64,000 nt of DNA, taken from the NCBI GenBank assembly GCA_003343885.1, contig QAKH01000048.1, forward strand, positions 72,779 to 136,778. The letters run 5' to 3'. Within the stretch, counting starts at the first letter, position 1. Each line of letters begins with the position of its first letter. This stretch comes from Clostridiales bacterium. Its GTDB lineage: Bacteria > Bacillota > Clostridia > Oscillospirales > CAG-382. Made by a program: the position numbers and the translations under genes. Under the pieces are notes generated by a model, which was not told where the DNA came from, made no database searches, and worked only from the letters and a program-made list of their open reading frames with translations. Below are positions 16,094 to 48,324 of this stretch, in pieces.

Positions 16094-16144
16094 AATGTTT
16101 CTCCTTTATTCCTTTATATGAGAGTAGTTATTAAAACCGTTTTA

Positions 16145-16173: not shown

Positions 16174-16184
16174 TACAGTTTTGA

Positions 16185-17129: not shown

Positions 17130-17215
17130 ACTTCAAATCCTTTCGTTGTCTCAAACTGCCTAACTTATACAGCTGCTCTTAATCAGTTTTACACCTTAAT
17201 CCTTTTTTGTATCCG

Positions 17216-17929: not shown

Positions 17930-18008
17930 GCATATCCTTCTTTCTGATACATAGTAGATACATACTGTTAATGTTACAAAATCTATATGCTGCGTAAAAA
18001 ACTGAGTA

Positions 18009-18037
18009 TTGACCTTAAGGTAAAAATATTATATACT
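18009..18037 (+). promoter_or_regulatory. sigma-A type promoter of dut
   Basis: TTGACC (18009-18014), 17-nt spacer, TATACT (18032-18037). Confidence 0.55.
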
Positions 18038-18066
18038 GTTTTTAATAAGAATGGAGAGATAAATAA

Positions 18067-18510: not shown

Positions 18511-18645
18511 AGTGCGTCGATAGCGTCGATAGATAGTATCGATAGCATAAACCGGATACAAAAGGCAGGTACAAGACGGGCTAAGCATAGTGACCTAATT
18601 TGGAGTATCTCAAGTTTGCATCAAATACATGATTATATTATACAA

Positions 18646-18671
18646 ATGCGGACGGCATAAGCCGTCCGCAT
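18646..18671. terminator. bidirectional hairpin between the convergent dut and acidic-tail protein genes
   Basis: Perfect 11-bp stem ATGCGGACGGC / GCCGTCCGCAT with an ATAA loop. The flanks are only modestly T-rich. Confidence 0.6.
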
Positions 18672-18689
18672 TATATTTAAGGTTTTAAA

Positions 18690-30734: not shown

Positions 30735-30756
30735 GATTGAAAGGAGTAATTTACAC

Positions 30757-32288: not shown

Positions 32289-32310
32289 TTTATAATTTTA
32301 TCTGCAAATA

Positions 32311-32350
32311 AATATCCGGCAAGATGTTATCTCTTGCCGGATATTTTTCT
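32311..32350. terminator. bidirectional intrinsic terminator between the V-ATPase operon and the convergent nine-gene locus
   Basis: Perfect 14-bp stem AATATCCGGCAAGA / TCTTGCCGGATATT, 7-nt loop, then TTTTCT on the plus strand and a U-rich stretch on the minus strand. Confidence 0.8.
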
Positions 32351-33181
32351 CTACCTATCCTTGCATACTTTTACATTAGATTTTTCACAGGCAACATATC
32401 CGTCTTTTATGGAAAAAAAAGCGCATCTCTCATCAGTGTGGGAATTTTCAGTCTTAATATCCGCTTTTTTTAGTGCTTTTGCACGGATTAGCATATACTC
32501 GTTATTTCCGTCGTTATAATAACAATCGTACCCATAAAACGCTCGTAAAACAAGCTCGGCTTTTTCATATTCCGTATCCGGATATATTGTGTACATACTC
32601 TTGTCCGGCATTTCAAGATATTCCGCCGCACCGCTTTGCGGTACGGCATTTTTATATGCCTCATCAAAATTTTCTATCAGATAGCTAAGCATTTCCGGCA
32701 GGAGCGCGTATACTTTTTGCATAAAAGTTTCAAGATTTTCCTTCTCTTCGAGTACAAAAGACCGCTGAACGACTATATCTCCGGTGTCAAAGCCTTCGGC
32801 AATTTTATGAATTGTAACTCCGCTTTCACGTTCTCTTCTCAAAATCGCTATGGGCATCGGCCATCCGCCTCTTCCCTTGGGAAGAAGAGACGGGTGAATA
32901 TTAAGCGTAGGTATATCAGGGAAAACAGGAATCTTATAGTAATACCCGGCGCAAAAAACTGCCTCACAGCCTTTTTCTTTAAGCCGCACAAAATCGGCAA
33001 TTGTTATTCTGTCAAGCTTATATGGAACGCCGGCATTTTGTGCGATACTGATTACCTTACTGTTGAATTCAGTTAAATTATCAGTCCGGCAGGTAAAAAG
33101 CTCTAACAGTTCACAGCCTTCGGACAAAAGTATTTCGAGTGCAGGAGCAAACAAATCAATCCCGATATAGGCAATTTTCAA
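32351..33181 (-). CDS. Fmt-type formyltransferase family protein (short, non-canonical C-terminal domain)
   Basis: 276 aa with a TTG start overlapping the upstream stop (TTGA). Catalytic motifs NIHPSLLPKGRGGWP and FDTGDIV are present. The N-terminal MKIAYIG beta-strand matches the Fmt fold start. Confidence 0.75.
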   Translation of the reverse strand: MKIAYIGIDLFAPALEILLSEGCELLELFTCRTDNLTEFNSKVISIAQNAGVPYKLDRITIADFVRLKEKGCEAVFCAGYYYKIPVFPDIPTLNIHPSLLPKGRGGWPMPIAILRRERESGVTIHKIAEGFDTGDIVVQRSFVLEEKENLETFMQKVYALLPEMLSYLIENFDEAYKNAVPQSGAAEYLEMPDKSMYTIYPDTEYEKAELVLRAFYGYDCYYNDGNNEYMLIRAKALKKADIKTENSHTDERCAFFSIKDGYVACEKSNVKVCKDR

Positions 33182-35145
33182 AGCACATCATCCCTTCGCT
33201 TTTCTATGACAAATACCGATGTATACGGCTTCATAATCAGCTCATTTTTCTTTTCTATGACGTTTCCGCTGCTGTTGCACCAAATTTCGAAATCAGAACC
33301 GTCAGAGAGCTTAATCTTTAAAGAATTATCGCTGTCACCGGTATTTATAATATAGTAAATCCGAACGCCGTCTCTTTCATACGGACTTACAAAGATATTT
33401 GCTTTATTATCTGACTCAATTTCTATTCCGTATGCAATCTTTTCGGCAAGAATTTCTGCCGGATTTTCACAAATATCAACCGAGAGCAAGTCGGGCTTTG
33501 AGCCTGCGTACAGTACACATCCTCCGGCAAGTTGAAAATCACTTATTTTTTTCTCGAGCAAATCATCAACATATTTTACTCCCGGCATTACGACACAGCT
33601 GATTTCCAAACCATTACATACAAGGCAATTATTAACTATATCCGCATCTTTTATCCACTCTGCATCGATAATCGTAAAATCAAGCTGTTTTTTACAAATA
33701 TCCGTATACAGTTTGAACATGGTCTGTTCCGCAAATGTTTCGGTATCTGTAATTTGGGCGCCGGAATTTATACCGATACAATCGGGATGGTAATATCCTT
33801 GGAACGTTTCAATAGGATAATACATGCCAATTTTACCGCACCATCTGCAACTTCTGAGAACATATGCAGCTCTTGCAAAATAATCGGCATAATACTTGAA
33901 GCTGCCTTGAAGTCTTTCCGGTGAGAGATAAGAGTTGATATGGTTTATTCCCGACATGAAAATCAGATCCATTGTTCCTATTTCCTGTTCGAGAGTATAG
34001 TCCTGATTCCCGTTATACTGTACAAGCGGACATATCTCAACCATGACCTTTTCTGTTTTACCCGTCATTCTTGCCGCACTTCCAACGTATTTTGCAGCCA
34101 TAGCAAACTGGAACGACTTATTGTATTTGAAAGCTTCAGGATCGCCTGTAAGCATGTCAACACCGGGATAGTCAAAAGTTTTAAGACACTTCATGAGATT
34201 TCCATACAAGGGCACATGCATGGAAATACATTCCTCAAGCAGGCAGTGTCCGGAGAATTTGACTGAATGTGTGCGGCACCATACTTGAATTTGCTTGAAA
34301 AACGCGTCATTTACCATTTCAGAAACGGTCTGCCAAAACATGAGTTTACTTTTTAAAAATCTGTCTGATTTATCAAACAACTCATGTATTATCTTAAAAA
34401 AGCTGACACCGTGCATTTGATAAAAGACTTCCGGCAATTTTTCCTGCCATGGCAAAAAAGCACGTTCCATATTTTTGTAACAATTAACATACGCACTCAT
34501 AAGGCTTGGCTCATCTGTAAAAACTGCCTCAAACTCGGAAAAATTACTAAGACTTTCAAAATATTTATCGTATGTGCACTTAATAAACGCATCTACTGCG
34601 TCCTTATCAAGTAAGTTCGGATATCTCCTGGGACCCCAGCCGCAATTCTGTGCGTGACTGCCTTCAAAAACTGATTTTACTGCAAAGCACAAGTCTGCTC
34701 CGTTGACGGATTTTTCAGAGAAATTCACCGGTGAACCGTCTTTTTTGCAGGCATAAATAACTTTATCATATTCATCGTCAAGCTTAAAATCAGTGCCGTT
34801 TAATTCAAACACTGTAAAGCCCTTGGCTTCAAATTCCGGATGTTCTTTTAAGGTAAGTCCGTCAGCGCTTCCACTCGGATATCCTTTTTCGTCATACATC
34901 CAGACGCCAATATTATTTTTCTTGCACACATCTATATTTTTATCAAGTGTAACAAAATCCTCATCGCACTGCAAATATTTAGCTTTATCAGTTTTATCGT
35001 TATGCCAATTTACATTTGTGACTATGCCGCCGAAACCCAAGTCAGAAATGTCCACGAGGTATTTTTCCATATCTTCCGGCAATGCATGAGACAATCTATA
35101 TATTCTATATTCATTTGGCGGGTTTAGAAAAATATTTTTATTCAT
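33178..35145 (-). CDS. cytoplasmic glycoside-hydrolase-like protein, family not assignable by eye
   Basis: Start moved to ATG 35145 (GGAGG upstream). The N-terminal NPPNEYR ... GFGGIVTNV ... WMYDEKGYPSG ... FTDEPS pattern recalls uncharacterised TIM-barrel glycosidases. No signal peptide. Confidence 0.5.
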   Translation of the reverse strand: MNKNIFLNPPNEYRIYRLSHALPEDMEKYLVDISDLGFGGIVTNVNWHNDKTDKAKYLQCDEDFVTLDKNIDVCKKNNIGVWMYDEKGYPSGSADGLTLKEHPEFEAKGFTVFELNGTDFKLDDEYDKVIYACKKDGSPVNFSEKSVNGADLCFAVKSVFEGSHAQNCGWGPRRYPNLLDKDAVDAFIKCTYDKYFESLSNFSEFEAVFTDEPSLMSAYVNCYKNMERAFLPWQEKLPEVFYQMHGVSFFKIIHELFDKSDRFLKSKLMFWQTVSEMVNDAFFKQIQVWCRTHSVKFSGHCLLEECISMHVPLYGNLMKCLKTFDYPGVDMLTGDPEAFKYNKSFQFAMAAKYVGSAARMTGKTEKVMVEICPLVQYNGNQDYTLEQEIGTMDLIFMSGINHINSYLSPERLQGSFKYYADYFARAAYVLRSCRWCGKIGMYYPIETFQGYYHPDCIGINSGAQITDTETFAEQTMFKLYTDICKKQLDFTIIDAEWIKDADIVNNCLVCNGLEISCVVMPGVKYVDDLLEKKISDFQLAGGCVLYAGSKPDLLSVDICENPAEILAEKIAYGIEIESDNKANIFVSPYERDGVRIYYIINTGDSDNSLKIKLSDGSDFEIWCNSSGNVIEKKNELIMKPYTSVFVIEKRRDDVL

Positions 35146-35160
35146 ACAAAACCTCCGCAA

Positions 35161-35199
35161 AAATAACAAAGCGGCAAGCTCCCAACCGGAAGCTGCCGC
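35161..35199 (-). terminator. intra-operon terminator/attenuator-like hairpin
   Basis: Minus-strand RNA: GCGGCAGCUUCC-GGUU-GGGAGCU(U)UGCCGC (12 bp, one bulge) followed by UUUGUUAUUUUU, immediately before the RBS of the GH-like gene. Confidence 0.55.
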
Positions 35200-35212
35200 T
35201 TTTGCATTATTA

Positions 35213-36226
35213 TTAACCAACGATACCTGAACGCTCGATACCTTCGACGAAAGATCTCTGTGCGAACAAGAAGATTATGAACAGCGGCAAAATTACCAAA
35301 AGTCCACTGGTATTTGTTATTGCGGACTCCCACAAAGTTGTTGCCGCATAATCGATCTTCAAGCTCGGCGGAATTTTTGTTACTATGTTCGTAAGCAACG
35401 GTTCCGCGCTCGCTGTAAAGAAAGGAGATGCCGTATAGAATGTATCCGTCCACTGCCATGAGAATGAGAACATAAACACGGTTGTCATCATAGGTACTGA
35501 CAGCGGCATAATTATACGGAAGAATGTTTCAAACACGCCGGTTCCGTCAATATACGCTGCTTCTTCAAGCTCATCCGGCACGCCTTTATAGAACTGTCTG
35601 AATATGAATATATACAAACCGTTCTTAAATGCAAGACCTGTAAGCGAAAGTATGTACAGAGGTATTTCCGTATTTAACAAGCTTATTGTTCCGCCTGTAA
35701 ACAGCTTTATAATTCCCAACACGTCAAAGTAACGGAATTTCATAAACATTGAAAGCAACAATGTATCATGAGGAATCAAAAGTGTGATAATTACCGCAAT
35801 AAACAGGATGTTTCTGCCCTTAAACTTAAACTTAGCAAATCCATAACCGATTATTGCGCATATAAGCGTCTGGAACAATCCGCACAGTATTGATATTCTC
35901 GCAGTATTGAACAGTGCCTGCCAATACTTATTCTCTTTTATTATGAACACCCACTGGTCAAGCGTCGGATTTTTGGAAATCAGTTTTACCGTCTGATCCG
36001 TAAAGTCCGTTGTGCTCATAAATGAAGCGGCTATTTTTGTTATAAAAGGATAAAGGATAATATAGGAAATACCTACAAGGAGAACATATCTAAGTATAGC
36101 CCAAATTACCTTGCCGAGAAAGTTAAGCGAAAACACTTTTTGCTTAAATCTTTCAGCTGCACCAACTTTTCCTTCAAAGTTTATGCGCATTTCTTTTCTC
36201 GAAATTTTTCTTGTCTGCTGATCCAT
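35213..36226 (-). CDS. ABC transporter permease (CUT1 MalG/LplC-like) with ~45-aa N-terminal cytoplasmic extension
   Basis: Start moved to ATG 36226 (AAAGGAGG upstream). EAA loop EEAAYIDGTGVFETFFRIIMPL is present. Confidence 0.8.
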   Translation of the reverse strand: MDQQTRKISRKEMRINFEGKVGAAERFKQKVFSLNFLGKVIWAILRYVLLVGISYIILYPFITKIAASFMSTTDFTDQTVKLISKNPTLDQWVFIIKENKYWQALFNTARISILCGLFQTLICAIIGYGFAKFKFKGRNILFIAVIITLLIPHDTLLLSMFMKFRYFDVLGIIKLFTGGTISLLNTEIPLYILSLTGLAFKNGLYIFIFRQFYKGVPDELEEAAYIDGTGVFETFFRIIMPLSVPMMTTVFMFSFSWQWTDTFYTASPFFTASAEPLLTNIVTKIPPSLKIDYAATTLWESAITNTSGLLVILPLFIIFLFAQRSFVEGIERSGIVG

Positions 36227-36245
36227 TTCTATGTTCCTCCTTTCC

Positions 36246-37220
36246 TTAATCCTTACGCTGATAGAAAACAAACAGTGATATTATTCCTGCAACCGCAGCT
36301 ATAAGCACCAAAACGACTAAGAAATATATCCAAGACATTGCCGAGCTCAAAACTCGCGCGTCTCTCGTCGTACCTTCGTAGATTCTATTTATATACGTCA
36401 TAACTTCATTTGACTTTGAAGTAAACGAGTCTATAACGGTATAAATTGTATTTACGAGGATCATCGGGCTTATCATCGGGAAGGTTATCTTCCAGAATGT
36501 TTCCCATCCTGTTGCGCCGTCCATTGTACAGGACTCGTATATAGCGGGAGATATTGACTGCAATCCTGCTAAGAATATAAGCATTTGTACGCCGGAACGG
36601 TTTACTATATTGAATATGTTATTTACAACATCAACAACGTATACAACCAGTTCTGTACCTACCGCCATATTTCCAAGCAATGATGTTACGTCAAGCGCAC
36701 TGATAATATCGGTTCCGCCGTTCAGCGCATCTGACGCTCCGGTGTCTATACCGCCGGAATTCATGTACGTCATTACCGCATTTGACTGGTCAATCTGGTC
36801 TATAAGACCGGTTGTAAGAATAACCGGGATAAAGAATATCGCTCTGAATACCGCTCTTCCCACCATTTTTTGATTCAAGACTATTGCCATAAACAATGAG
36901 AATATAACGATTGCCGGTACATCCAACACCAACTGCTTCAAGCTCGATGTCAGCACTCTTACAAAGTTTGCGTCGTTGAACAATGCTTTGCTGTAATTTT
37001 CCCAACCTACAAATTCCAGCTCATATCCTCCTCCGCCACCGCCCTGGTTGGTGAGTATGTTTATTTCACTGAAACTGAACTGTACCGATTGGAAAAGCAT
37101 CGGGATATACAGAAGTACAAATCCGATTACAAAGGGAAGTACGAACAGCCATCCCGCTCTCGACTTCTTTGCGTCAAGAGAGGCAACTTTTTTCTTTTTC
37201 GGTTGAATAGCCTTATTCAT
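36246..37220 (-). CDS. ABC transporter permease (CUT1 MalF/LplB-like)
   Basis: 324 aa. EAA loop YESCTMDGATGWETFWKITFPM. Contains an unusual GGGGGG stretch in the first external loop. Confidence 0.8.
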   Translation of the reverse strand: MNKAIQPKKKKVASLDAKKSRAGWLFVLPFVIGFVLLYIPMLFQSVQFSFSEINILTNQGGGGGGYELEFVGWENYSKALFNDANFVRVLTSSLKQLVLDVPAIVIFSLFMAIVLNQKMVGRAVFRAIFFIPVILTTGLIDQIDQSNAVMTYMNSGGIDTGASDALNGGTDIISALDVTSLLGNMAVGTELVVYVVDVVNNIFNIVNRSGVQMLIFLAGLQSISPAIYESCTMDGATGWETFWKITFPMISPMILVNTIYTVIDSFTSKSNEVMTYINRIYEGTTRDARVLSSAMSWIYFLVVLVLIAAVAGIISLFVFYQRKD

Positions 37221-37240
37221 TATTTTACACCCCTTCCCTT

Positions 37241-40200
37241 TTACTCAGCTATTTGCGTTGTTTCTTCTTCAGCCATCAGCAGCTCTTCATCCGCTGCGTC
37301 AAACTGCACATAGCTCATTGCCGGTACACTTAGTGTTCCAACCTGAACATCATGAGTATTGTAGTTGAGAAGGAATCCTACTCCGTTTTCATAGACTACT
37401 TTTACTATTCGAGTATCAAGTGTTTCATGATCGACAATGTATGAATACTTAACCTGTTTCATAGCCTGATTAAATGAATTATATGTATTTATCAAGTCTT
37501 CTTTCCAGATGTCGTAACCTATGGCGTAATATTTGCTGAATTGCTCAAACTGTTTAAGCTCAGAAGTGTTTTCTTTAGAGAGAATGAAGTAGAGGTTTGC
37601 GCCGTTTTCTATCGCCTTTAATACGCTGTAATCGTAATCGCCGTCAAGGTTTATTGCGCTTCCGCTGAATTCCACATTTCCATGGAGAACCATTCCCAAG
37701 AACGGGATTGATTCGCTCGTATTGATGTTAAGGCTGCTATCAAGCGGTACATTCAAAATATGGTCAACATATGGCAATGTATAAGCGTTGCCTCCTGAAA
37801 CCATAAGGCTTTCGTTATCGCTTTCCATTTCAGACAATGTATTTGAAACAATTGTCTTTACATCTTCTCTGTTAAGAGCATAATCTTCGTTATGGTCAGA
37901 ACTGAGTTCTGAACCGAGAGTACCTACGCTTAATCCCTGTGCGCCAAGCTCTAAAAGATCGTCTTTTATATCTTCATAGAACTTTCTCATGGACGTGGGA
38001 GAAATAATCAATGATCCTTCCTCTTCAAATCCCTGGTACAAAGGACTATATCTTCTGTATGCTGCACTTCGGTCATCAATTGTTTTTACCGAATCGTCCT
38101 TATAGTCAAATCCGTCAAACCAGTCGAGAGTATCAACATAGACAAAATCCAAATCCGGATAGAGACTTACACTGTTCTCTTCGGCATACTCAGCCAGTTC
38201 CTTAAATCCGTCTTTGCCGCCGATGGATTTTTCGACCTTAAGCTTTGCGGGAGCTGTATGCTCCATTCCGCCGTTATACCAGCCTGTAAGGCGTACATTA
38301 ATATTCTCTACTCCGCTCTGCGCTAATTCCTCCAACATTTCTCTTGTCTGCTCAAATGTTGTGAGAGGAGTCTGCATTTCAACAGGGAAACCTATAAACT
38401 TTTCAGTAGTTTTTATTGTTCCGAAAGTTTCAAGATAAAGCGAAACATCCTCAGTCTTGTCATTTTCCGCAGTCATTTTTTCAAATGTTCCGGTTTCAAT
38501 AAGGTAATCCCTGATTTCAGCCGCCATATCATTATAATCGGCGCCATCTCCGGTTATCGGGAATATACGCAAAGTATAGTTTCCTGTATATCTTCTGTCA
38601 CTCTGTACCGTCCACACTGCTGAACCGGTGGTTGATATTCCTTCGAGGACATAAGAGTCGGTAGGCTTGGGATAGAAGGTTGTATAAACAGAGCTATACT
38701 TATGAACCGTTCCGCCATGGTCAGCTGTAATTTCCGCCATTGCGTCGCCTTCAACGAGGTATGCAACGTATCCGGCTGTTACGGTTTCAACCTCTTCTTG
38801 GTCATTTTCGTCTATTGGCGCAGACTGTTCATCAGGTATTGTTTCATCAACAGTTTCATCAACAGATTCGTCTACAGCTTCATCGGTCTGTTCAGAATCC
38901 GCAATATCAGCAGCCTCGTCATCAGAAGTCACATCATCAGTTACTGTCTCATCAGTTTCAGATGTTTCCGATATTTCTTCGGTTTCATCAGTTTCAGAGG
39001 TTTCAGCCGTTTCAAGCGCTGTGGCAGCGTCGTCTGTTTCAGTTTCAGTTTCTGTTTCCGCCTGGGCAGTATCAGTTGACTGCTCAGTATCAGTTTCAGA
39101 AACCTCACCAGTGGTATCCTCAGTTTCTTCTATGGGAGTATTATCCACAACCGGTTCAGTTTCCTCATCCTCATCAGCTACGACCGGCTTGGTTTCCATT
39201 ACGCCGAACGCCGGGAGGCGCATTGTTTCCTGAGTGCTTCCGGTAATGGAGTGGAAAGAGTAATCACGTCCGTAAAGCTTACCGGTAAGGGTGAAAGAAC
39301 GGGAAGCAATGTCCTCAAAACGAGTTATTGTACCGGAACCGTCAGGAATGAAAGTAAATCCGGTATTTTCATTGCTGCCGGCACAAAAATACGGCAGGAA
39401 TTTTACACTCTCAAGAGTATAGTTAGAAGAATCATAACGAATACTGCTTGCAGGAAGTCTTATTTCAAGTCCCAGGTCATCAAGATTGTATTCTATGGCA
39501 AAACGGAAGAGCGCAGGAGCTGCCGATGTGTCAACATAATTCAGCATTTCATACATTTCTTCTACCTTAGAATAGTCATCGTAGTACGTATTCTTGATAT
39601 ATCCTTCAAGTTCAAGCAGCTCACGGTTACCTACACCGGAGTCAAGGACATAAATGGCATACTTTTCAGTTATCGGCCATTTGGTTTTCGTAGAGTCGAT
39701 TGTCGCTGCCGACTGTCCGGGCTGGTTTATATCCTTAAGGGTATAATATGCAAGAAGTTTATCATACTCTCTTGAGCCTTCCTCCAAGTAACCGAGGATA
39801 TTTTGCTCAAACGCATTTTTTTCAATTTGCCAAGGTACAATATACTTTACTGCCTCACGGCCAATTGTATACTCGACGCGCAGACCTGTTCGGGTTGTAG
39901 ACATTGTAATCTGCTTAGATTCCTCAGAAGCAAATGCTGCATCTGAAAAGCTATTCAGGCTTACGATCGTACCGGTTGAGTCACTGTACGAAAGAATTAT
40001 CTGGGAAAGCAACTGCGCCTTCACGGCGTCTGAAGATTTGGAGGTTGCAACGTCATAAGGGTTAGTCAGCATTATCTGACCTGTTGCCTTTACAAGTATT
40101 CCAACTTCTCCGGTTTCTTCCAAGCCATATATCGCATATTCATCATTTTCAAAATACAGAAGCATTGTTTCAAGCTTTGCCTGGGCGCTGTCAAAAGGCT

Positions 40201-40366
40201 CGCCTAAATAATCAAAGGTTTCTTCCTCTTCTGTCGCTTCTTCGCCTTCTTCTGTTTCCGTGTCAGTTGTTTCTTCGGCAAAGACTCCTATCGTTGCCAA
40301 CGGGCTGAAAAGCGACATTATCATGATGAGCGAAAGAATATATATTACAAGATTTTTCAACTTCAT
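37241..40366 (-). CDS. large secreted or N-terminally anchored protein (from memory this architecture is labelled DUF5696; unverified) with internal acidic insert
   Basis: Start moved to ATG 40366 (AAGGAG upstream). Signal/anchor MKLKNLVIYILSLIMIMSLFSPLATIGVFA. The C-terminal half has TIM-barrel-like blocks (NINVRLTGWYNGG, LYPDLDF). Acidic insert at 38782-39180. Confidence 0.55.
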   Translation of the reverse strand: MKLKNLVIYILSLIMIMSLFSPLATIGVFAEETTDTETEEGEEATEEEETFDYLGEPFDSAQAKLETMLLYFENDEYAIYGLEETGEVGILVKATGQIMLTNPYDVATSKSSDAVKAQLLSQIILSYSDSTGTIVSLNSFSDAAFASEESKQITMSTTRTGLRVEYTIGREAVKYIVPWQIEKNAFEQNILGYLEEGSREYDKLLAYYTLKDINQPGQSAATIDSTKTKWPITEKYAIYVLDSGVGNRELLELEGYIKNTYYDDYSKVEEMYEMLNYVDTSAAPALFRFAIEYNLDDLGLEIRLPASSIRYDSSNYTLESVKFLPYFCAGSNENTGFTFIPDGSGTITRFEDIASRSFTLTGKLYGRDYSFHSITGSTQETMRLPAFGVMETKPVVADEDEETEPVVDNTPIEETEDTTGEVSETDTEQSTDTAQAETETETETDDAATALETAETSETDETEEISETSETDETVTDDVTSDDEAADIADSEQTDEAVDESVDETVDETIPDEQSAPIDENDQEEVETVTAGYVAYLVEGDAMAEITADHGGTVHKYSSVYTTFYPKPTDSYVLEGISTTGSAVWTVQSDRRYTGNYTLRIFPITGDGADYNDMAAEIRDYLIETGTFEKMTAENDKTEDVSLYLETFGTIKTTEKFIGFPVEMQTPLTTFEQTREMLEELAQSGVENINVRLTGWYNGGMEHTAPAKLKVEKSIGGKDGFKELAEYAEENSVSLYPDLDFVYVDTLDWFDGFDYKDDSVKTIDDRSAAYRRYSPLYQGFEEEGSLIISPTSMRKFYEDIKDDLLELGAQGLSVGTLGSELSSDHNEDYALNREDVKTIVSNTLSEMESDNESLMVSGGNAYTLPYVDHILNVPLDSSLNINTSESIPFLGMVLHGNVEFSGSAINLDGDYDYSVLKAIENGANLYFILSKENTSELKQFEQFSKYYAIGYDIWKEDLINTYNSFNQAMKQVKYSYIVDHETLDTRIVKVVYENGVGFLLNYNTHDVQVGTLSVPAMSYVQFDAADEELLMAEEETTQIAE

Positions 40367-40382
40367 TTTTCTGCTCCTTTCG

Positions 40383-42605
40383 CTATACACGGTACGACAG
40401 TTCTGTAATAATGGCGGAAATGAATGACACAATCTTTCCGACAAGACTTGAGAACAACACGCCTATAAACATTATAAACGCCATACCTACTATTGTGAAA
40501 ATTGTTATTGTTACATTTTTAAAGAGTGTGTAATCGTGAATTACCATTGTACCGAAGAACAACAGGTATCCCACCCAAAAATATGCAACACCCATTCCGA
40601 GAGTCAGAAGTGAAGCTTCATTAAGCGATACAATATTTGACAACAACGTTGTCAGAATTAAAAACGCAGGGAGCGGGAACAAAGCGTAACATGTTGTTAT
40701 ATAAATATCTTTCATGCTGCCTTCTCCGTCGAAGAGCGTTGTCAGACACCAGTTTGCGACAACCCAAAGGATTATCGGGAGAAGTATGGAAGCTATTGAA
40801 AGGAAAATATTCATTTCGGTCGGATGCGGATCAATAAGGTATGCCTTTCCTACCAAAGAATATATATAGGAAATAATTGTTACAACCAATATAATGGTTG
40901 CGCCCTTTACAGATGCTCTCTTTTCATGTTTAATATCCCAAAAACCGTCGAACGGATGGAACATTGCGTGGAATCCGTAAAGAAGCTCTTCCTTTACTGT
41001 TCGTTTTGGCTTTTGAACCTGTCCAAGGACATTTATCTTATGTGCATACTTGAATATCTTGCTGAGAATTATAAAGAACACTACTACAACTACCGGAACA
41101 ACAAGGGCATATTTTTCAACCCAAGCTTTTCTTACCTGTTGGAAAGCCTCCGAGTAGTTTTCCGTATCATACGCATACTTGTATGACTCCATAGCTTCTT
41201 CATATTTGCCCTGTCTGTACAAGCTCTGACCGATTCCTATGTAAGACATATCAAAATTGGAGTTTCTCTGAAGAATATTTTCCCATCTCGATGCCGCTTC
41301 ATCATACAATCTGTCTCTCTGGAGCCTGAGAACTTCTATAAGCTCATCACCGTATGAGGTTCTCTTGAAAACAGTTATATTATCGTTTTCCTTATCAAGA
41401 ACCAACATATTAGAATCGGCGTAGTCAATCGCCTGCACCATTGTAAGGTTACCAAGCTGGCTTCCCTTATCGCCGAATGCGAACAAAAGGTTTCCGTCCT
41501 CATCATAGGTGAATATCTTCTGACGTTTCTGGTCAATTATTGACCATGTTCCTTCCGGTCCGAGGGCTATATCAACTATCGTTGACGGACCGGTTATTGT
41601 ATAGTTTGGAGTAGCGGTTGTAGTTACGTTAATTTCTCCGGAAGGCGGATAGAAGCCTGCACGTTTCATAACGTCCTGACCGCTTGGGTTAAGCTTCTTA
41701 GCCGGAGAAAACTTACTGTCGGTATTTTTCGAAGTAATTGCACTCATCAAATCATTTTCGTCAATTGCCGCAGTTGTTGCATAGACAAAGCCCTTTTCGT
41801 CAATATTTATATTATTAAACTCAAGAGAAACTATAGATGTAGATTTCTGCTGCTGTTCCTTGGTCTGGAAACGACGCCAAATCATATCCATAAGCGACAT
41901 TGACTGAGTCTGGGTTCCCAAGAATCCGGTAAACTCTCCGTCATGGTTCATCGAGATAATACCCTGATATGTGGTTGAAGAAACTACATATATATAACCT
42001 GATGTGCCGACTGCAACTGCAACCGGTTTATAAATGTGGTTATCCGGAAAAACTTCGCTTTTAGGTTCCTCAATAATTCTTATGAAGTCGCCTTTTTTAT
42101 ACTCATCGGTATCGACAGTAGAAAAGACAAGTATTCTTGCTGCGTCGGTGTCGCATACATAAAGCTCACTGTCAGTTGCGAACAGTCCGCGGGGAGTTGT
42201 GATGCTATCCGGAACGCCCCAGTTATTCACAAATGTCGTAAGTTCATATTCGAGTGAATATTTGCATGTCTCAAAATCATAGCGAACTGCCAAAACACGC
42301 GGTGTTTCGCCTGAATCAGAAATGTACAGCATTCCGTCCCATTCGCTGTAATATTCATCCTCTTCCACAGACTTTTTCAAAACTGAACCGACGCAAAAAT
42401 CATATGGCTCACTTATCGGCTCTTCGAGTCCGAGGGTTGATGAGGAAATGGTTTCATACGGTACATATGCATGCGGAGACTCAACGTAGTTTCCGTCTAT
42501 GTCGTAAGTATAAGTTGAATACGGTATTATTGCTCCTGCCGGTATAGTTCCTGCTATCATCAATATGCAGACTGCAAGGAGAAACACGCTTCTTAACTTT
42601 TTCAT
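40383..42605 (-). CDS. signal peptide + beta-propeller (NHL-like) + TPR-like segment + C-terminal Yip1-type 5-TM domain
   Basis: 740 aa. The N-terminal ~480 aa carry repeated ...G.IYV.D / ...D..GN.... blades. YRQGKYEEAMESYKYA forms a TPR-like hairpin. The HPFDGFWDIK entry motif is followed by five TM helices. Confidence 0.55.
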   Translation of the reverse strand: MKKLRSVFLLAVCILMIAGTIPAGAIIPYSTYTYDIDGNYVESPHAYVPYETISSSTLGLEEPISEPYDFCVGSVLKKSVEEDEYYSEWDGMLYISDSGETPRVLAVRYDFETCKYSLEYELTTFVNNWGVPDSITTPRGLFATDSELYVCDTDAARILVFSTVDTDEYKKGDFIRIIEEPKSEVFPDNHIYKPVAVAVGTSGYIYVVSSTTYQGIISMNHDGEFTGFLGTQTQSMSLMDMIWRRFQTKEQQQKSTSIVSLEFNNINIDEKGFVYATTAAIDENDLMSAITSKNTDSKFSPAKKLNPSGQDVMKRAGFYPPSGEINVTTTATPNYTITGPSTIVDIALGPEGTWSIIDQKRQKIFTYDEDGNLLFAFGDKGSQLGNLTMVQAIDYADSNMLVLDKENDNITVFKRTSYGDELIEVLRLQRDRLYDEAASRWENILQRNSNFDMSYIGIGQSLYRQGKYEEAMESYKYAYDTENYSEAFQQVRKAWVEKYALVVPVVVVVFFIILSKIFKYAHKINVLGQVQKPKRTVKEELLYGFHAMFHPFDGFWDIKHEKRASVKGATIILVVTIISYIYSLVGKAYLIDPHPTEMNIFLSIASILLPIILWVVANWCLTTLFDGEGSMKDIYITTCYALFPLPAFLILTTLLSNIVSLNEASLLTLGMGVAYFWVGYLLFFGTMVIHDYTLFKNVTITIFTIVGMAFIMFIGVLFSSLVGKIVSFISAIITELSYRV

Positions 42606-42618
42606 ATCTATCTCCTCC

Positions 42619-43482
42619 TTAGTCTTTCATACCTGAACTTGCCATTGTTTCAATAATGTTGCTCTGCGTTACAACGAATACTGTTACAGGAACAAGCATC
42701 ATGATTACGGTTGCCGCCGCAGAAGCTCCGGAACGTACTATACCGCCGGCAAGTATCTGCTGAATTGCATAGTTAAATGTTTTGAGTTCCTCACTGTATA
42801 TGTACACTGAAGTTCCCGTATTCCACAAGCCTTGGAAAGAATACACGATAAGTGTCAGCCACGCCGGCTTAACCATCGGCATTACAATTCTCCAATAGAT
42901 TGTAAATTCCTTCGCGCCGTCAAGACGGGCTGATTCAAGTACTGAGTCCGGTACGGTTGATTCCATAAACTGTCTCATGAGGTAGAAGCCGAGCGTTGAA
43001 CCGAACGCCGGGACAATCAATGACCAGTATGTATCAATCCATCCAAGTGCGGACATTATTATGAAGTTTGAAAGAGAAGTTACAGTTGCATGGAACATCA
43101 ACGAGTAATAAACCAACTGGAACATGCCTTTTCTTCCGGGGAAGTTGATTTTTGTCATTGCGTATGCCGCAAGTGACGCAAACAGCAAGTGTCCGAATGT
43201 TCCGCCTACCGCAACAAGGGCGGTATTGAAAATATATCTTGAGAACGGAACCCAGCTCTCACTCATCAATCTGAAGAGTTCCTGGAAGTTCTTCAAGCTC
43301 GGATTCTTTACCAAAAAGCGAGGCGGGAACATCCACAATTCGTCAAGCGGTTTTAACGACTGGGATATTGCGTACACCATAGGTAAGAACATGAACAATC
43401 CGAATATAATAAGCAACAGATTTATTCCGACATCGCCGCCGACGGAACGGTTAAATGAACGTCTTTTTATCTTAAATTTCAT
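42619..43482 (-). CDS. ABC transporter permease (CUT1 MalG/LplC-like)
   Basis: 287 aa, 6 TM. EAA loop ESARLDGAKEFTIYWRIVMP. Confidence 0.85.
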   Translation of the reverse strand: MKFKIKRRSFNRSVGGDVGINLLLIIFGLFMFLPMVYAISQSLKPLDELWMFPPRFLVKNPSLKNFQELFRLMSESWVPFSRYIFNTALVAVGGTFGHLLFASLAAYAMTKINFPGRKGMFQLVYYSLMFHATVTSLSNFIIMSALGWIDTYWSLIVPAFGSTLGFYLMRQFMESTVPDSVLESARLDGAKEFTIYWRIVMPMVKPAWLTLIVYSFQGLWNTGTSVYIYSEELKTFNYAIQQILAGGIVRSGASAAATVIMMLVPVTVFVVTQSNIIETMASSGMKD

Positions 43483-43483
43483 A

Positions 43484-44434
43484 TCATTTACCTACCTTCG
43501 ACAACATTTTATTTACGAGAAGGTTTGCTCCGATCATTATTGCAAACAGGATTGTCGCAATTGCCGACGCATAACCGACTTCCCATCTTTGGTTACCATA
43601 GTCTTCAAGATGATGCATAATTGTATGTGCTGCGTAATCAACGCTTGGGAATCCGCAAAGAGCGGTAACGATAGCTCCGAAACCAAACGAACCGGTTATT
43701 GACATGATTGCCGCAAACATCATCTGGTTCTTCATTACCGGCAGTGTTACATACCACAATTCCTGCCATCTGTTCTTAACGCCGTCAACGGCAGCTGCTT
43801 CATAAAGCGACTTATCAACAACCTGGAAACCTGCGATAAACGACAGGAACGAAGTTCCGAGAGATGTCCACAGTGCTACCAATATTACGAGCGTCATTAT
43901 ATAGTCCGTATCCTGAAACCACAAAATCGGGCTGTTGATGATACCAAGCTTCATAAGTGTTCCGTTTACCCAGCCGTACTGGTCACTGGAAAACAGTGTC
44001 TGCCAAATCAAATATACCTGACCGGAAATACTCGGTGCGTAAAAGATAAGTGTTACAACCGCACGGATTTTCGGCGTCAGCTCGTTTATAAACCAAGCAA
44101 ACATAAGGCACAGCAGGTACGATACAGGACCTGTCATTGTTGCGAATATCAAAGTATTGCTGCATGCAAGAAGAAATATATCGTCGTCAAGCAGCAGTCT
44201 TATATAGTTATCCAAGCCGACAAAAACAGGCATTTCAAGCATATTAAACTGCGTCAAACTCAACAGCAGAGACACAACGACCGGAACGACCGTGAATGTG
44301 AGAAACACAAGATAATACGGAGCCACCATAAGGTATCCTACTTTGTGCAATTTCATTTCACGGAGAGTCCACTGCCATTTTGTCATATCTTTTCTCAGCT
44401 TCGGCGCCTTTTGAGCGCTGACCTTTTCTGACAT
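43484..44434 (-). CDS. ABC transporter permease (CUT1 MalF/LplB-like)
   Basis: EAA loop YEAAAVDGVKNRWQELWYVTLP. I chose ATG 44434 (GAGGAG 8 nt upstream) over the track's GTG at 44443. Confidence 0.85.
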   Translation of the reverse strand: MSEKVSAQKAPKLRKDMTKWQWTLREMKLHKVGYLMVAPYYLVFLTFTVVPVVVSLLLSLTQFNMLEMPVFVGLDNYIRLLLDDDIFLLACSNTLIFATMTGPVSYLLCLMFAWFINELTPKIRAVVTLIFYAPSISGQVYLIWQTLFSSDQYGWVNGTLMKLGIINSPILWFQDTDYIMTLVILVALWTSLGTSFLSFIAGFQVVDKSLYEAAAVDGVKNRWQELWYVTLPVMKNQMMFAAIMSITGSFGFGAIVTALCGFPSVDYAAHTIMHHLEDYGNQRWEVGYASAIATILFAIMIGANLLVNKMLSKVGK

Positions 44435-44470
44435 TGATTCCACTCCTCGATTTTCCTTTATTTATATGTG

Positions 44471-47400
44471 TTAATTATTTGTCTCGTTTTCAGCAAGCTT
44501 TTCTTTATAAGCTTCCGCAGTTAAGAATCCGTACTCTTCACGTTTTCTCGTAAGCTCGTTGTCAATGTCATCGATATATCCGAGCATTGCTTCCGACTCT
44601 ACTTCGCCGTCGTCAACAACTGCGTAGAATGCAAAGTTTGTGTATCTTGCCACTATATAGTTACCGGGAGACATCGGAGTGCCTTTCAATGACTTAAACT
44701 GCTGATCAAGATTTTTCTTTTCCTGAGCAGTCCACGATTGCCCCTTCAAAGCCTCTACGTTTGCGGTGTTATATTTTGCTGCGGTTCCCATTATTGCTAC
44801 CTGTTCTTTTCCGAAACGCTCCTGAACAGGAGTGCTTACCCACCACTGGAGATATTTCCATGAGTTCTGTGCTCTTACAGAATCGGTTACATCCTGGTCA
44901 GCTGATATATCGTCAACCGCGTCCTTCATCATCATAACAGCGCCGACAGTTATAGGCGTTGTATGGTCGATTGTTCCGTCTGCCTGTTCAACACCGGGCA
45001 GCTGAACAAATTCCCAAAGTCCGCTGATTTCCGGTGCAAATACTTTCAACTGGTTATACATTGTATAGTTTTGTATCGCAATCGGCAGCTCACCGGTTCT
45101 GAATCTGTTAGCAAAATCGTAAGTTACAGGCTGACTGTAAAGAGTAAACCATTCCGTCATACGCTGGAATGCATCGAGCGCTCCATTACTGCCAAGGTTG
45201 GTTTCAATACCTACGGTACGCAGATATTCTCTGTCGTTCTGGTCAATCTCATCTGTTCCGTAATCTTCGTAATCGTAGCTTGACTTAAACCATTCTTCGC
45301 CGGTCTGATACATTCTGATCTGAGTAAGCGCCTGTGAGAAGCCCATCTCAAGTTTATTTTCAGACAGTGCTCTGATTACGTCTTCAACGTCGTCCCAGGT
45401 CTGGGGAACTTCAAGTCCGAGTTCAATGAAGATATCTTTTCTGTAAAACAGCATCGGGAAATCCATTGTAGAAGGAAGTCCGTATGTAACAACGCCGTTT
45501 CTTTCAACGCCCTTAACGACCTTAAATTCTGCATCGCCGTCTTCGCTTATCGGAAGCTCTTCTCCGACAAACTCACGTCTGTCCGGGTCAAGAACGGTCA
45601 ATGGAACGAAAGCTTCTTCATTGAACAGGTTAACTACTTCGCTGTAACCCATTACGTTTTCGCCCATATAATCGTTTTCGTTTTCAAAATAATTCAGCGG
45701 AATTACAGCATTTCTTATACCGTAACCTACCGGGTCAGCGTCCATGGAAACATCCGGTCCGTTTCCGGCAAGAGTTGCAGGAAGAAGAGTACCGGCAGCA
45801 ATAAGTTTCAGGTTAACCGAAACGCCGTACTCTGCCGTAAAGCTGTCATCAACCATCTGACGCATGATCTGTGCCTGGTCACGTCCGTTTGTTATCCACA
45901 CTTCTATTGAGTTAGGATCGTTTTCGTCGTAAGCAGTACTTGCACCCATGGAGTTATAGTCGACAAAGAAAGACATAATGAACGAGCCGAGCTCATGACC
46001 GATTGCTTCAAACAAACCGGCTTCCGCTTTCGGAAGAGAGTCGTTTTCCGCAGACTGGAAGAGTATGTAGTCAAGCTGGAGAGGCTGAGCCGATGTGGAC
46101 AAGAGCCAAGTACCAAGGCTTCCTATATAACTCTTATAGTTTTCAAGGTTAACGGCTATCTTGCTCTGATCATTTCCCATGATATCAAGAAGATACGCAA
46201 CTCTGTCCAAAATAACGGTATTTTCACCTTTTTCACCGATTGTCTCTTCCAAGAGTGCCGACATATCATACAAAAGTTCAGACTCTTCTCTCATTCCTCT
46301 GAGAACCTCGGGAATAAGTTTCGCGAACTCATAGTCTGTATATTCGTCAGGTTCGGAACCGGTAATCATAAGTATCTTTCTATAATACTCATTGAGGCGG
46401 TCCGTGCTGGCATCTATTGTCTGAAGTATAGATGCCATATATCCGAGCACTACTTCAAGTTCAATTGTATGCGTACCGGCTTCAAGATAAAACTCAAACT
46501 CAGTCGTTCCGTCATTAAGCGGAAGAGTCTGCCAGTCGCTATTATAATTAAATTGAAGTAATTTTGCTTCGCTGAACGGATATTCACCGTCAATCTTCAA
46601 TGAACGTGAGGAAAACAGACCTGCGTTTACCGTTTGCTTGAAACGCGGAATTATTTTATACATTCCGGTTTCGGGGATCTCCACTTCCCACTGTATCCAT
46701 TGTCCGGTAATCTTCCACTTATCGCCGCCGTTACCGCCTATGGTATTAAGAAGTGTAGCTTTTGTGCTCTGCGGTTCGGTAATAGCGGAGGTTCTGTCGT
46801 TCATTGCATATATTACCTGCTCGGATGTCTTAAGCGGAGTCTCAGCATTTATTTTAACTGATACATTTTCGCTCAATTTCGGAGCATCCTTATGTGCGGC
46901 AAGATACTCCTCATATGTAGGAAGAACTTCAGCAGTATGAAGCTTTATAGAAGCGATTTTTAACGGTTCACTCGCCGATTCAAAAGCGATTGTGTGCTCG
47001 CCTTCGTCCAAGTAAAACTTAAAAGGCTCCGAATAAAACGCCTGTGAATCGATAAGAGTTTGTGTTCTCCACTCCGGGGCCTCCTCTTTCACGGGACGCA
47101 TTTCGTTTTCATTTATATCTTTCTTGAACGTTCTCTCGGTTCTTGAATATCCGTTTTCTTCAACATCTACCCAAACACGGGTAAAGTTCATATATCTGGC
47201 TTCATTGAACGGTATTTCATCATCGATGAGAAATATTCTTTCTATCGTCGATCCGTTTCCTTCAATTGGATAATACTCAACTGTCACAGAATACATTGCC
47301 GTTTCAGGAACGTCGATTTTATAAACCAGCTTTCCTTCGTCCGTTGTCGTAACCGTTCCGCAAGTGATTTCTTTTCCTTCGCGAACAACCGTATCCTTTT

Positions 47401-47698
47401 CATTGACGGTGATTACTCCCTCTGAAAGTTCCTTGTCGTACTGAGTAACGTCAACTACGATTTCCTCTGACGCGTCCGGAACAAGAGCATAGTCCTCGAT
47501 ATACTCCGCATATGTCAGCGAAACCATCAAATCCTTCATATCGTCTAAGGAATTGAGAGTATACGACGTATCGTCAACAACGGCCGTCTGTTCGGTCGCT
47601 TCCTCGGCATAAGCCGACACGCCCGCCAAAGACTGCACCAACATGCTCGCCAGAATTATTCCAGAAACGATTCTGCTTTTGCGTTTAGCATTATTCAT
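44471..47698 (-). CDS. giant extracellular solute-binding protein: signal peptide + two CBM-like beta-sandwich repeats + helical linker + SBP (family 1) domain
   Basis: Start moved to ATG 47698 (GGAGGAAAACAGC upstream). Signal peptide ends ..GVSAYA/EE. There is an internal duplication (VPETAMY..IDDEIPFNEAR..FYLDEGEHTIAFE vs IPETGMY..IDGEYPFSEAK..FYLEAGTHTIELE). The C-terminal ~450 aa are SBP-like. Confidence 0.65.
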   Translation of the reverse strand: MNNAKRKSRIVSGIILASMLVQSLAGVSAYAEEATEQTAVVDDTSYTLNSLDDMKDLMVSLTYAEYIEDYALVPDASEEIVVDVTQYDKELSEGVITVNEKDTVVREGKEITCGTVTTTDEGKLVYKIDVPETAMYSVTVEYYPIEGNGSTIERIFLIDDEIPFNEARYMNFTRVWVDVEENGYSRTERTFKKDINENEMRPVKEEAPEWRTQTLIDSQAFYSEPFKFYLDEGEHTIAFESASEPLKIASIKLHTAEVLPTYEEYLAAHKDAPKLSENVSVKINAETPLKTSEQVIYAMNDRTSAITEPQSTKATLLNTIGGNGGDKWKITGQWIQWEVEIPETGMYKIIPRFKQTVNAGLFSSRSLKIDGEYPFSEAKLLQFNYNSDWQTLPLNDGTTEFEFYLEAGTHTIELEVVLGYMASILQTIDASTDRLNEYYRKILMITGSEPDEYTDYEFAKLIPEVLRGMREESELLYDMSALLEETIGEKGENTVILDRVAYLLDIMGNDQSKIAVNLENYKSYIGSLGTWLLSTSAQPLQLDYILFQSAENDSLPKAEAGLFEAIGHELGSFIMSFFVDYNSMGASTAYDENDPNSIEVWITNGRDQAQIMRQMVDDSFTAEYGVSVNLKLIAAGTLLPATLAGNGPDVSMDADPVGYGIRNAVIPLNYFENENDYMGENVMGYSEVVNLFNEEAFVPLTVLDPDRREFVGEELPISEDGDAEFKVVKGVERNGVVTYGLPSTMDFPMLFYRKDIFIELGLEVPQTWDDVEDVIRALSENKLEMGFSQALTQIRMYQTGEEWFKSSYDYEDYGTDEIDQNDREYLRTVGIETNLGSNGALDAFQRMTEWFTLYSQPVTYDFANRFRTGELPIAIQNYTMYNQLKVFAPEISGLWEFVQLPGVEQADGTIDHTTPITVGAVMMMKDAVDDISADQDVTDSVRAQNSWKYLQWWVSTPVQERFGKEQVAIMGTAAKYNTANVEALKGQSWTAQEKKNLDQQFKSLKGTPMSPGNYIVARYTNFAFYAVVDDGEVESEAMLGYIDDIDNELTRKREEYGFLTAEAYKEKLAENETNN

Positions 47699-47857
47699 GC
47701 TGTTTTCCTCCTGCCTTGATTTGTGAATAACTAAAAGCGATTTCAGCAATTTACTCATACGTCGAGACCTACTTTTCCCTGTGCCGCACACCGGAAATTT
47801 ATTCTTCGTCCCGGCAAAAAAGCAAAAAATGCCCAAGCCGCCTATTTACATACAAAT

Positions 47858-47886
47858 AGCATATCACTTGAGGCACTTTTTGTCAA
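47858..47886 (-). promoter_or_regulatory. candidate sigma-A promoter of the nine-gene locus
   Basis: Minus strand: TTGACA (47886-47881), 17-nt spacer, TATGCT (47863-47858). The -35 is embedded in the inverted repeat TTGTCA-agag-TGACAA (47880-47895). Confidence 0.45.
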
Positions 47887-48324
47887 GAGTGACAATTTCT
47901 TGAGACGATTGTTGTCGAATTGGTATATTTATGTGAAAAATGAACGAAATATTCACATTTGAATTGATATGAAAATTTTATATATTATCAATATTGCACA
48001 ATTAAATGGATTATTATTTAAAACATAATCAACCAAGTTTGAAATCCCTTGATTTTAACGCATTTTTTGTTAATTTTGAATACCAATTCACTGGAAAAGT
48101 AAATTTTTAAATTAACCTATTTTTTAAGTAAAATTTAAGGTTTACATAAATTTTGCAAAAAATGTAAACTTTTCAGTTGTTTACATAGGTATTTTGTTCA
48201 CTTCTTTTGTACATTGTTACCAATTTTTGACACGTTTTTTCTACGCGTTGGAAGTTTTGACAAAGACGAGTAAAAATCAGAAAGTTGATTTCAGTTGTCA
48301 CCGAGTTAATCTTATAACGGTTAC

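Follow-up and report, generated by a model that had tools for sequence, protein, structure and literature searches.

Analysis of a 64,000-nucleotide (nt) stretch of contig QAKH01000048.1 from the Clostridiales bacterium assembly GCA_003343885.1 (positions 72,779 to 136,778 of the forward strand; hereafter the window) revealed a locus of nine genes, g1 to g9, all on the minus strand and spanning 32351-47698, that is made up of a conserved seven-gene core and two accessory genes. The core encodes a giant substrate-binding protein (SBP; g1), a pair of ATP-binding cassette (ABC) permeases (A1 and B1; g2 and g3), a membrane protein with NHL, TPR, and Yip1 parts (g4), a large secreted DUF5696 protein (g5), and a second permease pair (A2 and B2; g6 and g7). 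The gene structure, the domain and fold identities, the strict co-conservation of the core, and the assignment of g8 and g9 as accessory genes are established by the comparisons described below. We consider it probable that the seven-gene module is a machine that captures a complex glycan at the surface, trims it, and imports it by a dual ABC route, supplemented in this lineage by two lineage-specific cytoplasmic enzymes.

The core was defined by comparative genomics. A genome scan with g5, using one genome per species, retrieved relatives in 496 genomes, mostly of uncultured gut or rumen Clostridia, and co-conservation was counted in the best 77 loci, all of which came from uncultured gut or rumen Clostridia. 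The genes for the SBP, A1, B1, the NHL-Yip1 protein, the DUF5696 protein, A2, and B2 occurred in the same order on one strand at 77 of 77 loci. The complete seven-gene core was present in 64 of them; the other 13 were cut by contig ends, with the absent genes lying beyond the cut. Identity to the window proteins dropped to 33-45% for the extracellular proteins, and the permeases retained 50-70%. An earlier note on this DNA, made from the sequence alone, had described all nine genes as one locus; co-conservation held for the seven core genes at every locus and failed for g8 and g9, which were found only in a subset.

Searches of annotated plasmid and chromid records with tblastn extended the module to cultured bacteria, namely Paenibacillus cellulosilyticus KACC 14175 (NZ_CP054609; class Bacilli) and Butyrivibrio fibrisolvens D1 pNP243 (NZ_CP146964; Lachnospiraceae), both of which carried one-to-one orthologues of the seven core genes in the same order. 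Identities to the proteins of these two species were 28-34% for the SBP (the alignment being nearly full-length for Butyrivibrio and beginning at residue 118 for Paenibacillus), 35-59% for A1/B1, 25-39% for the NHL-Yip1 protein, 24-27% for the DUF5696 protein, and 31-42% for A2/B2. The annotations in both records read extracellular solute-binding protein, two permeases, YIP1 family protein, DUF5696 domain-containing protein, and two permeases, which bore out to the letter the statement in the earlier note that YIP1 and DUF5696 genes stand beside an extracellular solute-binding protein in other Firmicutes. The Paenibacillus module had a MalK-type ATPase (ABC_tran, OB_MalK, and TOBE_2 domains) directly upstream. 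In the Butyrivibrio module, the NHL and Yip1 parts were encoded by two separate genes, a glycoside hydrolase (GH) gene of family GH43 and a divergent histidine kinase/response regulator preceded the core, and two SBPs of ~500 amino acids (aa) followed it, such that this orthologue displayed the transporter, carbohydrate-active enzyme (CAZyme), and regulator genes of a polysaccharide utilization locus. Neither module contained a GH106-like gene, a formyltransferase gene, or an acidic linker in its DUF5696 protein. A 74%-identical metagenomic relative shared the Butyrivibrio layout, as identified by a single-protein metagenome scan that gave three Butyrivibrio-like loci. The pair of ~500-aa SBP genes after the second permease pair was placed at 15613-19043 of the Butyrivibrio locus (L084) and at 14635-18103 of that of the metagenomic relative (L086).

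A gene set that matches in order and annotation begins the xylan degradation locus of Caldicellulosiruptor (Anaerocellum) bescii, consisting of xloEFG, Athe_0177, Athe_0178, and axoFGE, where Athe_0177 is an NHL repeat-containing protein and Athe_0178 a putative extracellular “GH129” protein (PMC8579813). Xylan and Avicel induced the xloEFG-axoFGE genes, which were placed in the XynR/AraR regulons, with msmK encoded elsewhere (PMC8579813); the binding of XynR to the xylan locus operator has been measured (PMC12285236), and the C. saccharolyticus orthologues Csac_2419-2412 respond to xylan-rich biomass (PMC5658599). XloEFG and AxoFGE are seen by the C. bescii authors as two separate transporters, each with its own SBP (PMC8579813), and the work on this locus covers expression and regulation only (PMC8579813, PMC12285236, PMC5658599), with no role for the NHL and “GH129” proteins found in it. 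These studies of the Caldicellulosiruptor look-alike were the only published information found. A search of a literature library returned no paper naming DUF5696 or PF18952, and nothing relevant was found on Yip1 with an SBP and permease or on NHL repeats with an SBP, xylan, or a glycoside hydrolase. The proposal in the earlier note that the core was not experimentally characterized stood for its biochemistry, of which none was reported, and required amendment for expression and regulation, which have been studied in the look-alike (PMC8579813, PMC12285236, PMC5658599). The number of SBP genes after A2B2 was two in Butyrivibrio, one (AxoE) in C. bescii, and none in the Oscillospiraceae loci, which suggests that a second SBP was lost in the Oscillospiraceae lineage.

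The layout of g1 comprised a signal sequence, two tandem β-sandwich repeats resembling carbohydrate-binding modules (CBMs; residues ~110-300 and ~330-470), a helical region (~470-590), and a C-terminal SBP_bac_1 domain of the CUT1 type, with the internal repeat of the N-terminal half scoring E = 3e-9. By itself g1 had no Pfam match and reached the sugar SBP Lin1841 (5ysb) at only E = 1.3e-5; a family profile built from 30 orthologues gave the same protein as its best match in the PDB (E = 2.5e-21, profile positions 586-904), and the g1 family was thereby assigned the SBP_bac_1-family extracytoplasmic SBP of a CUT1 importer. Pfam matches among the orthologues included SBP_bac_1/8 in 17 of 30 (E < 0.01), Golvesin_C in 10 of 30, and CBM_35 in 6 of 30, and relatives of g1 matched CBM35/CBM6. 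N-terminal signal sequences were present in both g1 and g5. A convincing lipobox or LPXTG/sortase motif was not found in most g1 and g5 orthologues, and g1 itself has no lipobox, a lack of anchors that is unusual for Gram-positive binding proteins. Since both proteins are secreted and mostly carry neither motif, some other factor must keep them at the surface.

The membrane protein g4 is built from a signal helix, a six-bladed NHL β-propeller (residues ~30-415), a TPR region (417-499), a transmembrane helix (~500-527), and a Yip1 five-helix bundle (546-739). Pfam recognized Yip1 (PF04893; 51.6 bits against a cut-off of 28.6) and TPR, and hydropathy placed five hydrophobic helices at residues 564-718, in agreement with the AlphaFold2 (AF2) model (pLDDT 81.7) and with the architecture of the Yip1 family. 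Foldseek searches with this model retrieved the NHL domains of TRIM71, Thin, and Brat (E down to 8e-13, TM-score 0.73-0.76), consistent with the six-bladed NHL propeller, and orthologues of g4 passed the Pfam NHL model. The Yip1-family protein YknW of Bacillus modulates the assembly of the ABC transporter YknWXYZ (PMC4887032). Because of this precedent and because g1 and g5 are without an obvious anchor, the simplest role for g4 is that of a membrane scaffold.

The secreted protein g5 matched DUF5696 (PF18952) with 519.4 bits against a cut-off of 25.6 (E = 1.7e-155), a family of ~5,900 clusters at 50% identity. Its AF2 model (pLDDT 82, pTM 0.78) had the three-domain fold of GH129, with an N-terminal β-sandwich, a (β/α)8 barrel, and a C-terminal β-sandwich, interrupted by a disordered acidic linker of ~120 aa rich in D, E, and T (residues 400-524). 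In Foldseek searches, where TM-scores were normalized to the GH129 chain and the match extended over the whole target chain, the best structures were ZgGH129 (5opq; E = 3.6e-27, TM-score 0.69) and NagBb (5wzn; E = 9e-21, TM-score 0.72), followed by FpGalactosaminidase, GH101, and GH31. At the sequence level, the PDB search with g5 alone found nothing, and a DUF5696 profile of 82 sequences matched NagBb weakly (E = 0.002) over ~125 residues around the GW..G barrel motif (NagBb residues 228-360); identity to the GH129 enzymes was ~10%, and the Pfam class of g5 is DUF5696 rather than any GH family. Residues D342, D368, D751, R833, N860, H895, and E920 were invariant in relatives of g5, the acidic ones among them down to ~25% identity. 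From these alignments, candidate catalytic acids are D751 and E920, which are invariant, and D824, which is nearly so. Some DUF5696 homologues (among P0382, P0418, P0449, P0384, and P0460) were 1400-2500 aa long; immediately ahead of their final β-sandwich stands an Ala-rich, probably coiled-coil insertion that measures up to ~1000 aa, a position different from that of the acidic linker in g5.

All four permeases passed the Pfam BPD_transp_1 cut-off, and the best NCBIfam matches divided them into two of UgpA/MalF type and two of UgpE/MalG type (UgpA and GlcT for g2). The EAA coupling loop was readable in all four translations, and BPD_transp_1 together with EAA characterizes ABC importers, such that each pair supplied the two membrane subunits of a CUT1 system. 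The identity of g2 across related loci was 64-95%. Within the locus, A1 and A2 were 24% identical and B1 and B2 22%, and the pairs are accordingly old paralogues, presumably with different specificities. These Pfam and NCBIfam results (four BPD_transp_1 permeases, Yip1 with NHL/TPR, DUF5696, and Formyl_trans_N) agreed with the domain calls of the earlier note, as did the lack of an ATPase and of a regulator among the nine genes. The ATPase of a CUT1 importer was likewise missing in the surroundings, as no MalK/MsmK-type protein was found among the open reading frames (ORFs) scanned, a subset of those in the window. An ATPase that is shared and encoded away from the operon is usual in Gram-positive CUT1 systems. 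The ABC-F gene upstream of the module, of the translation-factor type, was considered for this part and rejected, as its product has an ABC_tran_Xtn linker domain and no TOBE/OB_MalK or membrane domain. Synteny of ABC-F with the module was confined to closer relatives (~25 related loci). The adjacent AraC/PocR gene was not part of this synteny and was rejected as a regulator of the module, since its adjacency was not conserved; in the window, the ABC-F gene and this upstream gene (48325-51107, minus strand) overlap by 4 nt.

The two accessory genes encode proteins of other kinds. The g8 protein has no signal peptide; it gave no Pfam match alone, its single-sequence PDB search was empty, and NCBIfam returned a weak match to the BT4145 rhamnosidase model (E = 2.9e-6). 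PF17132 (Glyco_hydro_106) was carried by relatives at ≤43% identity and matched by 15 of the 23 g8 family members, and the family profile retrieved the structures 6q2f (E = 1.8e-11) and 5mqm (E = 2.9e-9), which we take to be GH106 enzymes. On these profile matches g8 is probably a divergent GH106 relative. The g9 protein contains NxHxSLLP and DTGD motifs and Formyl_trans_N (E = 3.4e-16), with PurN, the ArnA N-domain, and sugar N-formyltransferases as its best PDB matches. Its assignment as methionyl-tRNA formyltransferase (Fmt) was rejected, as the fmt equivalog gave 75.1 bits against a cut-off of 201.5 and only fold and motifs are common to both. The g8-g9 pair followed the core only in L003, L006, and L079/L080, and g9 alone did so in ~7 further loci (~10 loci with g9 altogether); most loci had neither gene, and relatives of g8 were found in unrelated contexts as well. 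Hence g8 and g9 are lineage-specific additions that follow a terminator-like hairpin. At L081/L082 (10001-11941), a relative with 49% identity to g8 was encoded apart from any DUF5696 module, its neighbors being genes for a PFL-like glycyl-radical enzyme, DUF1861, a GH67N/DUF4838 protein, and GH4, a neighborhood that may be a different catabolic cluster employing the same GH106-like enzyme.

The window ORFs were read from their translations, with start codons placed behind ribosome-binding sites, and the resulting coordinates (Table 1) matched the nine co-directional genes, gaps, and single overlap described earlier. The intergenic gaps from g1 to g8 were 27, 1, 13, 16, 20, 19, and 67 nt, and g8 and g9 overlapped by 4 nt. 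The single promoter that had been proposed before the locus was also recovered: it ranked second among the promoter-like sites of a consensus scan and was near-invariant in six related genomes, where the hexamers and the inverted repeat at the -35 box did not vary and the flanking DNA diverged. This repeat, a perfect TTGTCA-N4-TGACAA at 47870-47886 (minus strand), overlaps the -35 box and may be the operator of some regulator. No Rfam family matched the leader, and no riboswitch or known RNA was found in it. A CcpA cre site was rejected, as matches in the window were not above chance and the single match in the leader carried a mismatch. Another conserved inverted repeat, AATTTCCA...TGTAGAAATT, was observed at ~48235-48255 (minus strand) between the ABC-F and SBP genes, on the upstream side of the promoter and ~350 nt away from it.

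Table 1. Genes and transcription signals of the locus (window coordinates).
Feature	Position	Strand	Size, domains, or basis
g1, giant binding protein	44471-47698	-	1075 aa
g2, MalF/UgpA-type permease A1	43484-44443	-	BPD_transp_1, EAA loop
g3, MalG/UgpE-type permease B1	42619-43482	-	BPD_transp_1, EAA loop
g4, NHL-TPR-Yip1 membrane protein	40383-42605	-	740 aa
g5, secreted DUF5696 protein	37241-40366	-	1041 aa
g6, second MalF-type permease A2	36246-37220	-	BPD_transp_1, EAA loop
g7, second MalG-type permease B2	35213-36226	-	BPD_transp_1, EAA loop
g8, cytoplasmic GH106-like protein (accessory)	33178-35145	-	655 aa
g9, formyltransferase-fold protein (accessory)	32351-33181	-	276 aa
Promoter, TTGACA, 17 nt, extended -10 TG-n-TATGCT	47858-47886	-	Consensus scan and alignment
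5' leader, ~150 nt, AGGAGG ribosome-binding site at its end	47699-47857	-	Sequence read
Terminator-like hairpin with U-rich tail	35160-35202	-	Fold energy and sequence read
Bidirectional intrinsic terminator, common to the convergent V-type ATPase operon	32305-32350	.	Fold and sequence read

Two hairpins were identified further downstream. The hairpin noticed earlier in the 67-nt gap between g7 and g8 was present, with the correction that it is terminator-like and stands exactly at the 3' end of the seven-gene core; its GC-rich stem of ~15 bp is followed by UUUGUUAUUUUU (-28.3 kcal/mol, z = -3.4). The space between it and the g8 ribosome-binding site is too short for a promoter. By its sequence and fold it is probably a partial terminator or attenuator before g8-g9. 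The strong terminator that had been said to close the locus was found as a hairpin at ~32310-32346 with a folding energy of -26.1 kcal/mol (z = -8.5 against shuffles). The gene row of the V-type ATPase on the other side of this terminator includes a VCA0040-like ORF (Pfam: undecaprenyl phosphate translocase-like; 30688-31575, plus strand), situated between an ATP synthase alpha/beta-family ORF (29367-30734), whose end it overlaps, and the gene for subunit D.

Taken together, these features would fit the following mechanism. The two CBM-like repeats of g1 would retain a glycan, polymeric or branched, at the cell surface, where the secreted GH129/GH101-like g5 would trim or cleave it, and the SBP domain of g1 would pass the resulting oligosaccharides to two translocators, A1B1 and A2B2, both powered by a MalK/MsmK-type ATPase from elsewhere in the genome. 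The g4 protein could serve as scaffold or assembly factor, its NHL/TPR ectodomain holding the unanchored g1, g5, or both beside the translocators. Read-through of a leaky terminator would express g8 and g9, whose products would process what is imported once it reaches the cytoplasm. Within this scheme we infer catalysis by DUF5696, a physical complex, and the service of both translocators by one SBP. As to the substrate, the GH43 neighbor in Butyrivibrio and the xylanases in C. bescii suggest arabinoxylan/xylan for the Butyrivibrio and Caldicellulosiruptor versions only, and the GH106-like g8 points weakly to a rhamnose-containing glycan in the lineage of the window.

The glycan capture, processing, and import proposed in the earlier note thus gained fold and profile evidence, from the CUT1 SBP with its CBM-like repeats, the GH129/GH101-like g5, and the GH106-like g8, and lost ground on the genomic surroundings and several other counts. 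The Oscillospiraceae flanks consisted of housekeeping genes (ABC-F, UvrA, LexA, MnmA, RNase H, class-V aminotransferase, ComEC, HolA, RibF, and PBP), and no conserved CAZyme, sugar regulator, or transport ATPase was found in them, which weakens the reading as a classical polysaccharide utilization locus for this lineage; a transporter and putative CAZymes are present, but a regulator was found neither within the locus nor as a conserved neighbor. In DUF5696, the positions expected for the nucleophile and acid/base (barrel strands 4 and 6) were not strictly conserved. D824 of g5, >90% conserved, is N in the relative L033, and D868 and D876 were not conserved in Butyrivibrio. Inspection of the long DUF5696 homologues found no fusion between different module proteins. 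Finally, homology between the window module and the C. bescii locus is likely from gene order and matching annotations only. Elsewhere in the window, genes for a GH78 α-L-rhamnosidase and a GH2 β-galactosidase (10713-16093, minus strand) lie ~20 kb from the locus, and the genome therefore has other rhamnoside/galactoside enzymes.

A rather unlikely alternative is that two ordinary, independent CUT1 importers flank two unrelated surface proteins, the order being kept by inheritance and no joint machine being formed. The separate treatment of XloEFG and AxoFGE by the C. bescii authors, the extra SBP genes after the second permease pair in Butyrivibrio, and the divergence of the paralogous permeases, with the difference in specificity presumed from it, all agree with such independence. 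The gene order was nevertheless constant across Bacilli, Lachnospirales, and Oscillospirales, and inheritance alone is inadequate as an explanation because the seven genes stay together over such distances while their surroundings change; in addition, the gaps within the core are only 1-27 nt, and the Oscillospiraceae version lacks a dedicated SBP for its second permease pair. Little probability is also given to envelope housekeeping, by which the module would recover or remodel a wall glycopolymer, capsule, or exopolysaccharide of the cell itself and g8 and g9 would process an N-formylated or rhamnose-containing sugar. The flanking genes just described are what this explanation would have, as are the location of the locus in the dnaA-rpoB chromosome region (the window spans dnaA to rpoB), its conserved near-consensus promoter, and the resemblance of g9 to sugar N-formyltransferases and ArnA, enzymes of cell-surface glycan biosynthesis. 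It accords poorly with the GH43 gene and two-component system adjoining the Butyrivibrio orthologue, with the xylanases next to the xylan-induced C. bescii look-alike, and with the absence of g8 and g9 from most relatives, and the inverted repeat over the -35 box suggests regulated rather than constitutive expression.

A more improbable possibility concerns g5 alone, namely that DUF5696 is a catalytically dead glycosidase fold acting as a second, non-canonical substrate-delivery protein or lid for A2B2, with two cassettes joined by a Yip1 scaffold. The layout can be written as [g1-A1-B1]-g4-[g5-A2-B2], with A2B2 lacking an SBP in this lineage, and the imperfect conservation on barrel strands 4 and 6 also speaks for it. 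In contrast, the invariance of D342, D368, D751, and E920 among ~25%-identical relatives fits a conserved active site, and SBP genes after A2B2 do exist in other lineages. The capture, trimming, and import machine accordingly remains the reading that we prefer. Since its seven genes were kept from Paenibacillus to Oscillospiraceae, the module likely provides Gram-positive degraders of fiber or host glycans with a major route for acquiring carbohydrates. If it does assemble into one complex, the picture of ABC sugar importers would change, as this would be a new architecture for binding-protein-dependent importers, in which a further membrane subunit is obligatory, an enzyme is attached, and each binding protein has two permease pairs.

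Among the known systems close to the module is the C. bescii xylan locus, sharing an SBP, two permeases, an NHL protein, a GH129-annotated protein, and two permeases, with both loci of the CUT1 family and the ATPase elsewhere. It differs by a second SBP (AxoE), followed by secreted xylanases, and by XynR/AraR control and induction by xylan (PMC12285236, PMC5658599), whereas the window locus has no neighboring xylanase or regulator and carries the GH106-like and formyltransferase genes instead. The Bacillus YknWXYZ system likewise encodes a Yip1-family membrane protein together with the ABC transporter whose assembly it modulates (PMC4887032). However, YknYZ is an exporter of the MacB type that has a membrane fusion protein and takes no part in sugar uptake, and YknW is without the NHL/TPR ectodomain found in g4. 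The GH129 enzymes (the α-N-acetylgalactosaminidase NagBb and the 3,6-anhydro-D-galactosidase ZgGH129), GH101, and GH31 are like g5 in overall fold, from which it is set apart by its low sequence identity to GH129 and its placement in DUF5696.

Canonical Gram-positive CUT1 importers (MalEFG/MsmEFG with MsmK/MsmX) have in common with the module an SBP_bac_1 protein, MalF/MalG-type permeases with EAA loops, and an ATPase away from the operon. The differences are that the window SBP measures ~1075 aa compared to ~420 aa, contains CBM-like repeats, and belongs to a family mostly without a lipid anchor, that two permease pairs are present per SBP, and that these pairs enclose a Yip1 membrane protein, which is obligatory, and a secreted glycosidase-fold protein of large size. 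In the Sus-like utilisomes of Bacteroidota, surface binding, surface cleavage, and import are carried out by co-encoded and physically associated proteins (SusCD, glycan-binding proteins, and glycoside hydrolases). The logic proposed here would be the same, but the proteins and envelopes are unrelated, and a TonB-dependent outer-membrane transporter takes the place of the ABC importer. A tentative and rather doubtful extension is that the seven proteins and a shared ATPase form a stable surface complex, a Gram-positive counterpart of the utilisome, in which the Yip1-NHL/TPR protein would dock the GH129-like enzyme and the CBM-SBP above the two translocators, one station feeding two channels. 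Were there one such complex, a new glycoside hydrolase family or GH129 subfamily would probably be defined, and the NHL and “GH129” genes of the Caldicellulosiruptor xylan locus would gain a testable function. The locus is thus known in kind, as a CUT1 ABC importer locus with glycosidase-fold proteins, and is distinct in architecture and very widespread, its novelty lying in the way a giant CBM-SBP without an anchor is combined with two permease pairs, an NHL-Yip1 membrane protein that is obligatory, and a GH129-like protein.

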